Part shown: piece after piece, positions 7,679-11,609 of the stretch | How the letters are laid out: every line of letters starts with the position of its first letter | Position numbering within the stretch: the first letter of the stretch is position 1 | Virus record (IMG/VR): IMGVR_UViG_2695420600_000007 | DNA: 11,609 nucleotides | DNA from: a virus | Lineage: Duplodnaviria > Heunggongvirae > Uroviricota > Caudoviricetes | Reading direction: 5' to 3' (one strand) | Position numbers and translations under genes: made by a program | Notes under the pieces: generated by a model | Databases searched by the model: none | Seen by the model: only the letters and a program-made list of their open reading frames with translations | What the model was told of the DNA's origin: nothing

Positions 7679-8301
7679 TGGACTCAGGTATATATACTAA
7701 TGCTAATCTTCTTAAGTACTGGAAGTTAGTCAGAGGTACAACCAAGACAAGATTAACACTAATGGAAATTATGAGCTTAGGCGTTAATGTTACTTGTTTT
7801 GATGTACTACCAAAAGGTACTAATGGTTTTCACTGGACGGATTCACTAATTGATATAGATCTGGATGGTTATAAGTACATAAGTTTCCCCGACATTATCA
7901 GTGGTTCATTACCTTCATATTCTGAACAAAAGGGCATGTCTAATGATGCTATCAATTTTAAAATTAGCAATGTAAACGCCTCGGTTCGTGCTCTTGCCCT
8001 TGGTGGTTTCTTGAAAGATGCACAGATGAATATCAAGTTAGTAATTCTCAATCCATATGATAGTACTGTAATTGATTCAATGCTCATGTTTACGGGGTTT
8101 ATTGACTATGTACAGGCAGTAACTGATCCAAATCAGAAGCAAAACGAAATGACTATATATGTGAATTCTGTCTATAAGAAATTAGACAGACAACCTGCAT
8201 TAATTGCCGCCAACTCAGTATATCAATCTTACTATAGAAATGATGAGTACTTTAGTCTGTTAGGTCAAGTTAATCAAAATCAGAACTGGAAATACAAGTA
8301 A
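7678..8301 (+). CDS. Minor tail protein, gpL-like
   Basis: Coupled to its neighbours by TAATG overlaps at both ends. Size (207 aa) and position match lambda gene L. Similarity is loose and pattern-level only. Confidence 0.5.
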   Translation: MDSGIYTNANLLKYWKLVRGTTKTRLTLMEIMSLGVNVTCFDVLPKGTNGFHWTDSLIDIDLDGYKYISFPDIISGSLPSYSEQKGMSNDAINFKISNVNASVRALALGGFLKDAQMNIKLVILNPYDSTVIDSMLMFTGFIDYVQAVTDPNQKQNEMTIYVNSVYKKLDRQPALIAANSVYQSYYRNDEYFSLLGQVNQNQNWKYK

Positions 8302-8705
8302 TGAAAAATCTACATAATGAAGTAATGAGTATTATTCAGTACTCAATTGATAACCCATATAAGTATGGTGATAACGATTGCAACATTATAGTACTACGCC
8401 TTATTGATTTAATTAATGGTACTACACAGTTAACTAATCGCCAGTATTCGAGCATTAAAGAAGGTATAGCAGGTTTAAACAAGGAAGGATGGAACCATAC
8501 AGGGGAAATTGTTGAAGCGTACTGTAAGCCAGTACAAGCCACTATAGACGGTGATATCTGGTTAGATCCTGACAACCCATTAATTATGGCAGTAGTGGCA
8601 TCTGGTCGGGTACTTGGAGTAAATGCTGATCATGATGGTTTCGAACTTCAACCAAAACCAACAGAGGGAACATATTACAGAGTAAGGAAACAGAGAGATG
8701 GGTAA
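8301..8705 (+). CDS. Small tail tip assembly protein, possibly an NlpC/P60-like (gpK-related) domain
   Basis: Occupies the gene K slot. Candidate catalytic Cys in [12 protein letters not shown] and a downstream His in WNHTGEIV are spaced like the NlpC/P60 Cys-His core. Only 134 aa, with no JAMM/MPN motif visible. Confidence 0.4.
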
Positions 8706-11609
8706 GAGTTTAGGGGGCTTTTTTGGAGCCATAATTACGGCAGTTGTCGTCGCGGCTGCTGTGTACTTTTCAGGAGGTACAGCATTAGCAGCAATAGGTT
8801 GGGGTGCAGCAGCCGGATCTTTGTCATTAGTTGCAAGTTCTATGTTAGGTCAAATCGGGGTTTCTGGATACGGTGATGTAGCAGACTCACTAAGTAGAAG
8901 TACTTCACCAACTACTGGATTACCCGTTATATACGGTGGAGAACTACCACATAAAAATGGTGTATCAGGCGGTTCCTTCATCCTAACCGGAAGCATAGTA
9001 GCCTGGTACAACGTACCAAATTCTGATTCTCAGTACTTATTCTCAGAACAGGCTGTAGCATATGCTGGTGTAGAAAAGCATATCGAGCAAATCTATATTG
9101 ATAATGAGCCAGTACTTGCAGTACCGATTACAGCAGAGGGTGTAGTACCTAAAGAAAGTATTGCAGCGAAGTACCAGAACTATTTGCAATTAGAAGTACG
9201 ATTTGGTGGTGACTATACGAGTACTAAAACTCTTGCTGCAAAATATGCTGGTTCGAAATGGACAAATAAATTTCTTGGTAAGGGTATTGTTAGTATCAGT
9301 ACCGTTATCTTAAAAACTCAAGATTCATTAGAAAATAATATTCTTGTTAATGATCAATTCGCTTTAACTGTAGAAATGAAAGGGCAGGTGATTTATGATT
9401 TTGTTGATGGTACTTATAAAGCAAGTAGTAACCCTCCTTCAATTATCTATGATTACTTAACAAATTCAATCTATGGTATGGGTATTGATCCATCATTGAT
9501 TAATACCGATACGTTTGCAGAAACCGCAGCATATTGTGATGCTTTTGAATATTATGCTAATGGTGCTATCAGTTATCAAAAAACCTATAAAGATAATATT
9601 GAAAATATCTGTCAGTCATTTGGCGGCATCATGTATGTACATGCCGGACAAATCTGTATTACCACAGACCGCAAATCGGTATCCGTAGCCTCATTTGATG
9701 AGCGTAACATGGTAGGGGCGGTACAGGTTTCTACTTCTGGCGGTACTGACTACTTCAACGTAGTCGATTGCAAGTTTACTAACCCTGAATCGATGTACAC
9801 CACTGACGTAGTACGTATCCCTTCCGATATCACTACGGATGAAGCAGTACAGCATGATGGACAGGTCATAGCATTATCACGCGATTACTCATGGTCATAT
9901 GATCAAGAGGTGATTGCAAAAATGGCTAACGTTGATGTACTCAAGGCTAAGTATGCCCTGCGTACTATCAGCTTCACCACAAGTGAAGGTTGGGATCTCG
10001 AAGTATGGGATGCGATCAATGTCAGCAATGAAGAACTCGCTATCTCAGGCAAATTTAAAGTACTCAATAAAGATATCAGCACCGATCAAGAGAACGTTGG
10101 CTATGTAACCATCACGGCAGTAGAAGCACCTGATGCAATGTATGATGGTATTGATCCGGGTATCTGGTCGCCTGGTGGGGTAATTAACTTCCCTGAACTA
10201 CAGGTACTACCGCCAACGAACCTACAGGCAGTACGTAAGGGGAATACTACTTCTGGTTCAATCGTGGATCTTACCTGGGATGCTTCACCAGATCCGTATC
10301 TGCGTGGGTACTATGTTTACTACCGTCTTAACGGTTCCAGTACCTGGACGTATGCGGGGCAGACTGGCGTACAGAAGCTTGATTATGAATTATTTGGATT
10401 GTCTGATACTGCAAGCTACGACTTTTCGGTAGAGGCTTACAACAACTTAGGGCTGGTATCCAAGAAGCTTTCCCTAACTGGCATTGTTCCAACATTCAAC
10501 TTTGCACTACCTGCGGTAACGCGTGTAGTACTGACAAATAAAACAGAATCAGCGTATGTAACTGACTCACCAGATTTCAATATTGCCTGGGATTCACAAA
10601 AAGATATCAGAGTGAATAACCGATCATTTAGTGAGTACTTCAAGTATTACGTTATTAAAATCTATGACGGTACTAAATTAGTAGATACATTCTATACGCA
10701 AAGTAATGCCTTTAATTTCACTCTTGAAATGAACCGTCTGAAAGTACGTAAGCCTACCATTGGTATTATCGCACAGGGATTTAATGATGGTACATATTCA
10801 GAGGAAGTGAAAATAACCGTAGAGAATAAACAGTGTGGTTTAGTAGAGGATGTTAGCTTTACGGGTGGTTTTGGTAATTTGTTTGCTTCATGGACTAAAT
10901 CTACTGAACGTGATTATGCAGGTGCGATTATCAGTATTGTTAATGGTACTAATACACGTATATTCACCAGTTATGCACCTGAATTTGATTCAATACCAAA
11001 CATCACTGATGGTGAGTATAAGGTTAAGATGGGATTCTTTGATGTGTTTGGTACTGATGATATTCAATATTGTCCAGAACAAACAATCAGTATCAACTCC
11101 AAGTACCAGTTTACCGAAGATGATGCAGAGGCAATTAACGGGATTCTTGATTTAGAAGATCGCCTGACTGGTACCATTAATGATGCGGTCAAAATTGCCA
11201 ATAAGAATACCAGTACTGTTATCAGTGCATCAGAGGCACGTACCAATGATAAAATCACTGCCAGTGAGAAAACGTTAAGTACTCAGATCACTGGGGTAAA
11301 TAGTTCCTTATCACAGAAACTTAGCACCGTTGAAAGTACTGCCAATGGTAACAAGGCCAGTATCCAGACACTATCCCAGACGGTAACGGATAACAACAAA
11401 GCTCAGACTACAGCAGTCTCACAGCTACGTAGTGATGTGAATGGACAGATTGCCACTGTTAACCAGTCAATGAGTACTAAAGCCGATAAATCTACTGTAG
11501 ATGCTCAGTACTCACTATCAGTACAGGCTAATGGCACGGTAGCTGGTATGCGTCTTGTTGCGAGTAGTGGAATGGATTTGCCCCTATATTTCCAGACATC
11601 TGTTATCAC
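8698..11609 (+). CDS. Central tail fibre / host specificity protein, gpJ-like with a gpI-C-terminal-like N-terminus; 3' end truncated by the window (at least 970 aa)
   Basis: ATG 8698 overlaps the upstream stop, with RBS AGGAAACAGAG. The frame stays open to the window end and is absent from the ORF track only because it has no stop. The Gly/Ala-rich hydrophobic N-terminus ([35 protein letters not shown]...LPVIYGGE) resembles the lambda gpI C-terminus. [21 protein letters not shown]...AAYCD resembles the conserved gpJ core. A fibronectin type III-like module ([17 protein letters not shown]...[12 protein letters not shown]) lies at about 10201..10470. Confidence 0.85.
11570..11605. repeat. Right copy of the perfect 36-bp inverted repeat (partner at 1..36), lying in frame within the 3' part of the J-like gene
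   Basis: Exact reverse complement of 1..36. In the J frame it encodes [13 protein letters not shown]. The window ends 4 nt past the repeat. Confidence 0.9.

Follow-up and report, generated by a model that had tools for sequence, protein, structure and literature searches.

A siphophage-type prophage tail tip with no separate gene I and a J-like protein that opens with a gpI-like module

Introduction

The tail tip assembly protein gpI of phage lambda was described by Iyer, Burroughs and Aravind (2006) as a ubiquitin-like (Ubl) domain followed by a Gly-rich linker and a TAPI-C domain, and the JAB domain of gpK was predicted to cleave off the gpI Ubl, making the two a functional pair; the same study already noted TAPI–TAPJ fusions in some prophages and NlpC-only TAPK variants (PMC1779556). 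Residues 101–223 of gpI comprise two predicted transmembrane helices, a plug, and β-strands that augment the hub domains of gpJ, a region that supports the C-terminus of the tape measure protein (TMP) and is released on binding to LamB (PMC11101478, PMC10721106, PMC12617516). The gene transfer agent RcGTA encodes a hub protein (g13), a 150-residue peptidase (g14), and the megatron (g15), an arrangement shared by roseophage R4C; in both, an iris formed by the N-terminus of the megatron closes the channel, and insertion of this N-terminus into the outer membrane has been proposed (PMC7296036, PMC10276861). Structural roles have been described for gpI, for the megatron N-terminus, and for the plug of T5 pb3 (PMC11101478, PMC10721106, PMC7296036, PMC10276861, PMC10038345), and Xiao et al. 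earlier proposed a correspondence of gpL, gpI, and gpJ's N-terminal part, taken together, to pb3. Here we compare these systems with an 11,609-nucleotide stretch of viral DNA (IMG/VR record IMGVR_UViG_2695420600_000007; hereafter the window), which includes the genes for the tail tip of a siphophage-type Enterobacterales prophage. In this module a 134-aa protein occupies the position of gpK and is followed directly by a J-like protein. The best joint explanation of the findings reported below, and one we consider likely, is that the tail-tip hub is made of the same conserved pieces as that of lambda, divided differently among polypeptides, with gpI's C-terminal region forming the N-terminal module of the J-like protein.

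The N-terminus of the J-like protein

The J-like open reading frame (ORF) begins with an ATG at 8698, 9 nt downstream of an AAGGA Shine–Dalgarno sequence, and extends to the end of the window. Its first 55 residues include 12 Ala and 11 Gly, and the 19-aa Kyte–Doolittle mean peaks at 2.2, with a profile similar to that of lambda gpI 98–140. Since the Pfam model Lambda_tail_I covers only gpI 14–97 (the ubiquitin-like domain), the C-terminal region of gpI was modelled here from 14 diverse proteins, 11 from phages (lambda, KS9, T1, BR52a, Serratianator, Acba_3, Mcat18, jat, mEp390, K50_evo23, and YO122_1) and three from E. coli and Salmonella clusters. The J set comprised 22 non-redundant N-termini, from the window clade, DCP80, henriette 12B8, CRP-701, HTVC202P, and IMG/VR loci. 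Diversity for both sets was gathered from phage records and IMG/VR loci instead of from homologue searches, in which the J N-terminus returned only 14 close fragments, with no bridge to gpI, and the gpI C-region returned close gpI relatives throughout the 120 matches listed of 899, with no bridge to J. Aligned with hhalign, the two profiles matched over 95 collinear columns (Prob 97.1%, E 5.8e-11, score 62.2), covering both hydrophobic helices, the linker, and the '[LI]PV[IL]YG..RVGG' strand. The hallmarks of TAPI-C, namely Gly-rich hydrophobic helices, a plug/linker, and a '[LI]PV[IL]YG..R.G' strand, are all present in the J N-terminus.

Controls placed this score far from background: 100 column shuffles of the gpI alignment gave a mean of 10.0 (sd 2.3, maximum 17.7), and the reversed alignment scored 15.2. 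The non-hydrophobic part by itself, a 34-column segment, gave Prob 96.5% and a score of 44.0 versus 8.7±2.2 for shuffled columns; omission of the two J sequences closest to gpI left the result unchanged (Prob 97.0%), and the window clade alone scored 40.2 (Prob 90.3%) versus a shuffle maximum of 19.6. When 177,635 distinct PDB sequences were searched with an HMM of 18 J N-termini, the best three hits were lambda 'Tail tip assembly protein I' (gpI entries 8iyk_I and 9e7m; E 1.6e-4 to 2.3e-4), aligned from profile positions 5–101 to gpI 100–211, and the next two were other 'tail assembly proteins'. Compared with lambda gpI alone, the J N-terminal profile gave Prob 95% in hhalign, and a 500-residue J profile matched gpI with its N-terminal part (8–103) and gpJ with positions 229–459. 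Single sequences also make the connection: DCP80 J 73–96 matches gpI 188–211 by BLASTP (E 2e-5), and the window N-terminus aligns column for column with relatives such as DCP80 that match gpI directly. Finally, among 3,047 six-frame segments of the fetched loci, the gpI C-region HMM recovered 11 true gpI genes, after which all further hits were J-like ORFs. On the strength of these profile comparisons, we assign the first ~112 residues of the J-like protein as a homologue of the C-terminal region of lambda gpI (TAPI-C). The original prediction, made from the sequence of the window, had recognised in this N-terminus the Gly/Ala-rich hydrophobic segment typical of the gpI C-terminus and had proposed either a gpI–gpJ fusion or loss of the gpI N-terminal domain; hydropathy and profile alignment bear out the first point, and the second is supported by the TAPI-C homology together with the absence of a Ubl domain documented below.

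Several observations weigh against this assignment. The window-clade profile aligns with gpI over the first hydrophobic helix alone, a stretch in which composition could raise the score, and the clade carries a 13-residue insertion after 'YGG' that breaks the motif, which puts the window's own sequence among the weaker matches. Pairwise BLASTP of the window N-terminus with lambda gpI is not significant (E 0.19), the gpI C-region HMM scores the window ORF weakly (7.4 bits, for the first helix), and an AF2 model of J residues 1–206 was uninformative (pLDDT 42.7) and was not used. Pfam and NCBIfam scans of the N-terminal 130 residues, both without a model of the gpI C-region, found nothing, and single-sequence phmmer against the PDB returned only FN3 noise for J and lignin peroxidase noise for its N-terminus. 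The BLASTP result, the lack of a Pfam model for the region, and the match confined to one helix would also suit a generic membrane anchor or signal-like segment whose resemblance to gpI is one of composition and not of descent. We hold this to be very unlikely, because shuffled and reversed controls of identical composition reach at most 19.6 against observed scores of 40–62, the non-hydrophobic segment alone retains the match, the unbiased PDB search is topped by gpI in an end-to-end collinear alignment, and the window N-terminus is column-aligned with the DCP80-type relatives. On the shuffle controls, a purely compositional similarity was rejected.

Absence of a separate gene I

The K-slot stop codon overlaps the ATG of the J-like ORF within ATGGGTAA at 8698–8705, leaving no separate gene between the K slot and J. 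The K-slot ATG likewise overlaps the stop codon of the upstream 207-aa gene (TAATG), and the distal tail protein (Dit), hub, K-slot, and J-like genes are chained by such overlapping stop and start codons, in agreement with the coordinates, the gene descriptions, and the lack of gene I given in the original prediction. A gpI homologue encoded elsewhere was sought with two models. PF06805 (Lambda_tail_I, the Ubl β-grasp domain) matched no ORF of the window, and an HMM of the gpI N-terminal domain reached at best E 0.37 in the window and 38 related loci, the search taking in the window, 31 viral loci (seven-kb neighbourhoods), three prophage neighbourhoods (20-kb), DCP80, henriette, CRP-701, and HTVC202P; the same HMM recovered 11 of 11 true gpI genes at E 1e-20 to 1e-34. 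Of the two outcomes named as refuting the original prediction, a J N-terminus unrelated to gpI and a gpI homologue encoded elsewhere, neither was obtained in the sequences covered. Downstream of J, the Pluralibacter prophage encodes two proteins of unknown function, a lysozyme, a GIY-YIG endonuclease, and a holin, and Pfam places no Ubl or JAB domain in any of these ORFs. As a separate observation on this prophage (L047; 15450–15881 and 16782–17072), the genes following the tail module encode a lysozyme, a SegE-like GIY-YIG homing endonuclease, and a holin of the GTA_holin_3TM family.

Gene I might instead have been lost from this copy by prophage decay, through deletion or insertion sequence (IS) activity, in which case the layout would be a degradation artefact; IS2 ends flank the window, IS2 truncates the J-like gene, and Iyer et al. 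suggested that K variants with NlpC alone might be degenerate forms from prophages (PMC1779556). This account is exceedingly improbable. The same K–J overlap, with no gene between, is found in intact copies (L016, L017, L019, L021–23, and L047), the layout recurs in lytic phages known from culture (DCP80, Vibrio phage henriette 12B8, and Roseobacter phage CRP-701) as well as in a diverse range of metagenomic viral contigs, and the overlapping start and stop codons leave no scar. Decay-driven loss was rejected because intact relatives and lytic phages share the layout.

Among IMG/VR loci retrieved by the Cys motif of DUF6950, the family of the K-slot protein, the J-like gene abuts or overlaps the DUF6950 gene in 31 of 31, and all 31 J-like genes have a hydrophobic N-terminus and the YG motif. 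These loci were chosen by the DUF6950 motif and many are near-duplicates, and '31 of 31' therefore overstates the number of independent cases, which tells against a broad reading of the count. The order TMP, Dit, hub, DUF6950, J is present as well in Escherichia phage DCP80, henriette 12B8, and CRP-701, the last with its gene already annotated as DUF6950; Pelagibacter phage HTVC202P has the J N-terminus with DUF6950 absent. Because the pairing and the N-terminal features recur in the 31 loci and in these three phages, we do not attribute them to chance. Two features of the DCP80 record (L001) are worth recording: its Dit (7053–7613) and DUF6950 (8409–8825) genes are unannotated in GenBank, and the phage is classed as Straboviridae/Tevenvirinae, although the region is a siphophage-type tail module.

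The K-slot protein

The K-slot protein matches Pfam DUF6950 (PF22262) at 34.6 bits, above the gathering threshold of 27 (E 2.3e-8), as well as phrog_2134, and a precomputed PF22262 match exists for 56 of its 58 close homologues. An AF2 model built from 35 clade members is of high confidence (pLDDT 93.4, pTM 0.88), and the protein has the NlpC/P60 (papain-like) fold, with a Cys-bearing N-terminal helix packed on an antiparallel β-sheet. PF22262 is the sole Pfam family matched; Pfam detected neither PF00877 (NlpC/P60) nor a JAB/MPN domain, and 134 residues are too few for a second domain. Lambda gpK, by comparison, matches the JAB model PF14464 and consists of JAB followed by NlpC/P60. When 1.84 billion representatives were searched exhaustively with a profile of the protein, 60 clusters were found, 53 of them stand-alone proteins of 123–151 aa and the rest five short fragments and two longer proteins (432 and 734 aa). 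Searches with the K-slot protein by tblastn against phages (E<=1e-3) and by single-sequence phmmer against the PDB found nothing, and a literature search for 'DUF6950' returned no papers. Several records of DUF6950 homologues (P0136, P0153, P0156, P0170, P0175, and P0185) bear the public name 'ornithine carbamoyltransferase', which looks like a propagated annotation error.

Within the 35-member clade the invariant residues are N25-D26-C27-N28, D83-G84-D85, M96, R103, and H111, Cys27 lying in an NDC motif. In alignments with gpK and more distant relatives, Met96 falls at the position of the canonical catalytic His, a position that is His in gpK and in several marine relatives. Across 75 DUF6950-type sequences the Asp-Cys pair is invariant (75/75), and a His occurs at or near the canonical column in 18. 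The K-slot protein has the second domain of gpK only, with the Cys kept and the canonical His absent; the original prediction had seen in this 134-aa protein only a possible Cys/His core, and Cys27 and His111 fit that description. Judged from the alignments, the limitation is a trait of the whole family and not peculiar to this copy. In the comparison with gpK and the NlpC/P60 families that this prediction called for, the fold speaks for a relationship; PF00877 and gpK itself were not matched. Counting against a link with gpK, BLASTP (E 9.1) and hhalign with the clade profile (Prob 0.1%) found no sequence similarity, the sole cross-signal being a weak match of gpK to DUF6950 at the Cys motif (E 0.067); the connection is drawn from the fold and the position of the gene.

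The K-slot protein probably keeps the role of gpK in tip assembly and, by analogy with RcGTA g14, may be carried in the tail lumen. With the invariant Asp-Cys kept and the canonical His absent, we put the chance that it cuts peptidoglycan at roughly even. A catalytically dead NlpC/P60 pseudo-enzyme, acting solely as a tip-assembly factor and not as a virion-borne cell-wall peptidase, is only slightly less probable than that. Substitution of the catalytic His by Met96, fixed in the clade, and the scarcity of His at this column across the family speak for a dead enzyme, as does the behaviour of lambda gpK, which is needed for assembly yet undetected in virions (PMC10721106, PMC12617516). On the other side, the invariance of Asp-Cys in the family and of His111, Asn25, and Asn28 in the clade suggests selection on an active-site-like pocket; RcGTA g14, in the same gene position, degrades peptidoglycan, with matching density in the tail lumen (PMC7296036); and a Pfam scan of the TMP showed no other lysin domain.

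Hub and J body

The J-like ORF matches phrog_31 'central tail fiber J' (E 2e-46), PF13550, and fn3. The best match of the J profile (A4) in the PDB is T5 pb3 261–724 (E 1.4e-44), which starts exactly at the pb3 'IPVVYG' motif, and lambda gpJ 267–502 is matched as well (E 3e-18). The PF13550 hub domains, FN3, and C-terminal tail-tip domain of the gpJ-type architecture are all represented, the last (PF09327) being cut by IS2 in the window and present in the intact locus L016; intact J-like relatives (L016, L017, L019, L021–23, and L047) are 1067–1100 aa long.

The profile of the hub family (A5) matches T5 pb3 residues 16–179 (E 5e-13), and the 207-aa hub protein is the equivalent of pb3 hub domain I. 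PF09931, the 'baseplate hub N-terminal attachment domain' of RcGTA/phiJL001 type, is matched by 6 of 13 hub family members and not by the window protein. Because it has a single Cys, the window hub cannot hold a four-Cys iron-sulfur (Fe-S) cluster like those of lambda gpL and the RcGTA and R4C hubs; the ~190-aa hub proteins of related loci have 0–3 Cys. The Dit gene product also matched, weakly, the T5 pb9 B-domain PF21430.

Genomic context of the window

ORF calls and family searches identify the + strand of the window as a siphophage-type tail module (Table 1). Chromosomes of Kosakonia, Klebsiella, Rahnella, Pseudescherichia, Enterobacter, Pluralibacter, and Scandinavium carry close homologues. 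When the whole window was compared by megablast with phages and with 5,426 complete E. coli genomes, the only matching parts were 1–33 and 11573–11609, which are the same IS2 terminus in inverted orientation. Positions 4801–11572 are 100% identical to IMG/VR loci L016 and L017, in which the J-like gene is intact (1100 aa) and ends in PF09327. Because these loci diverge from the window exactly at 11573, we read the window as part of a prophage in which IS2 interrupts the J-like gene near codon 958; with this gene truncated, the present copy cannot make a complete tip.

Table 1. Features of the window bearing on the tail-tip module
Feature	Position	Strand	Family match or remark
Tail-tube/fibre fusion, 858 aa	479–3055	+	
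Plain tail tube protein, 157 aa	3114–3587	+	
Tail assembly chaperone	3627–3938	+	
Presumed chaperone	3971–4333	+	By position; without family match
TMP	4323–6536	+	
Dit, 185 aa, 'M' slot	7121–7678	+	phrog_1302 'distal tail protein', E 8e-17
Hub protein, 207 aa, 'L' slot	7678–8301	+	phrog_2048, E 8e-24
K-slot protein, 134 aa	8301–8705	+	DUF6950, NlpC/P60 (papain-like) fold
K-slot Cys27	8379–8381		
K-slot Met96	8586–8588		Canonical His position
K-slot His111	8631–8633		
gpI-C-like N-terminal module of J-like protein, aa 1–112	8698–9033	+	
Hydrophobic Gly/Ala-rich segment, ~aa 7–25	8716–8772	+	
Hydrophobic Gly/Ala-rich segment, ~aa 29–52	8782–8853	+	
'GLPVIYGG' motif	8917–8940	+	Preceded by a short linker, followed by a β-strand region
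J-like hub/central-fibre body, aa 113 to ~958	9034–11572	+	phrog_31, PF13550, fn3
PF13550	9577–10041	+	
FN3	10210–10452	+	
IS2 terminal repeat interrupting the J-like gene	11573–11609		100% match to IS2 ends

The window could represent either a complete short-read contig broken at copies of IS2 or a piece of prophage bracketed by IS2; its left IS2 end adjoins the start of a 139-aa ORF (42–461). In L018, which is 100% identical to the window at the K-slot gene, the J-like ORF (3898–4326) diverges from the others near residue 121 and stops some 20 codons further on, where the contig ends, suggesting another insertion or an assembly break in the same gene. The product of ORF 479–3055 joins an N-terminal tube domain (phrog_158, aa 2–150) to fibre-like sequence, with three 25-aa 'DTGSVPDTRTVNG..LSEDVVLTS' repeats (aa 267–341), and a C-terminal Peptidase_S74 intramolecular chaperone domain; as a second tail-tube paralogue is encoded at 3114–3587, the pair suggests a tube subunit carrying its own side fibre. 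Between the tape measure and Dit genes, the minus strand carries a 190-aa ORF (6547–7119; phrog_3829, a family of unknown function), present only in loci 100% identical at the K-slot gene (L016–L018) and absent from L019, L021–23, and L047–49; because of this restricted distribution, it looks like a recently inserted moron.

Proposed function and significance

Going by the structures from lambda, RcGTA, R4C, and T5, the J N-terminal module would lie in three copies in the lumen of the tip cone, where these may close the channel and dock the C-terminus of the TMP. Receptor binding would release the modules, allowing their hydrophobic helices to insert into the outer membrane. The module also includes the '[LI]PV[IL]YG' β-strand segment, whose counterpart in lambda augments the gpJ hub domains. 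The joint absence of the gpI Ubl and the gpK JAB would fit a module with no maturation step of Ubl removal, and the DUF6950 protein would act in tip assembly, possibly as a lumen-carried wall peptidase, an activity made uncertain by the missing canonical His. That the plug and membrane-insertion roles are transferred from other phages weighs against this account.

The change may have been fusion or loss here, or else fission in lambdoids together with their gain of a ubiquitin-like domain. A tentative proposal, to which we give somewhat less than even weight, is that the contiguous form seen in the window, T5 pb3, and the RcGTA megatron is the older one, and that lambda gene I arose by fission of the hub/J N-terminus and capture of a Ubl domain, with JAB then recruited solely to process the Ubl; as a second possibility, the DUF6950 clade would have a non-canonical Cys27/His111 site or be a pseudo-enzyme. 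If the contiguous form is older, the strict joint absence of the two domains from this lineage would turn these prophages into a natural 'minus-Ubl/JAB' control for the role of the pair in tail assembly. The co-absence is in any case a modest handle on the 2006 prediction that gpK JAB processes gpI, of which we found no test in the literature searched.

The arrangement itself is ordinary, a known and widespread architecture of gene transfer agents, roseophages, and T5, with the fusion and the JAB-less K already in the earlier literature. The label 'non-canonical' given in the original prediction is apt relative to lambda and does not hold beyond it, since the comparison of gene organisation that it called for returned a common layout related to those of RcGTA, R4C, and T5. 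Two results are useful but incremental: an explicit link in sequence from the gpI C-region to the N-terminus of J/megatron-type proteins, and the co-absence of Ubl and JAB. The former supports the recent cryo-EM view that different siphophages distribute one set of hub domains over their polypeptides in different ways. For annotation, genes labelled 'hypothetical', 'fibronectin type III domain-containing protein', or 'ornithine carbamoyltransferase' become interpretable together as a complete split-hub tail tip.

Comparison with known tail tips

Lambda K, I, and J follow the same order as the window, with a peptidase-like protein, a plug/membrane segment, and the J body. J residues 1–112 are homologous to gpI ~96–211 and the window J body to gpJ 267–502, and the K slot shares the NlpC/P60 fold and Cys motif. 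Lambda differs in having a separate gene I, a Ubl domain (PF06805), and a JAB domain, all three absent from the window, whose K slot is DUF6950 and not PF00877 and is without the canonical His, whose hub is without the Fe-S cysteines, and whose Dit has 185 aa in contrast to the 109 aa of gpM. The fusions of Iyer et al. are distinct as well: TAPI was defined there by the Ubl domain, whereas the window fusion is without Ubl and holds the TAPI-C part only.

The four-gene order of RcGTA g12–g15 and of roseophage R4C (Dit, hub, ~150-aa peptidase, megatron) is identical to that of the window, including the small peptidase-like protein that stands alone between hub and megatron. The megatron N-terminus is hydrophobic, and a role first as channel plug and later in outer-membrane insertion has been proposed for it (PMC7296036, PMC10276861); the window J N-terminus is likewise hydrophobic. 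Further links are the PF09931 matches among relatives of the window hub and the DUF6950 and J pair of Roseobacter phage CRP-701. The differences lie in the hub, with four Fe-S Cys in RcGTA and R4C and one Cys in the window, in the Enterobacterales host of the window, and in GTA-specific domains, which went undetected; PDB searches with the window profiles gave no direct sequence match to RcGTA or R4C chains.

T5 pb3 provides the best solved-structure match of the window J, and in both the YG strand and the J body are contiguous. Pb3 differs in being a single 949-aa chain in which a plug within the hdII insertion closes the tube, whereas in the window the DUF6950 gene divides the hub into two parts, of which the second opens with two hydrophobic helices. 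Taken at the level of sequence, the window hub and J proteins together correspond to pb3 split in two, with the DUF6950 gene between the halves.

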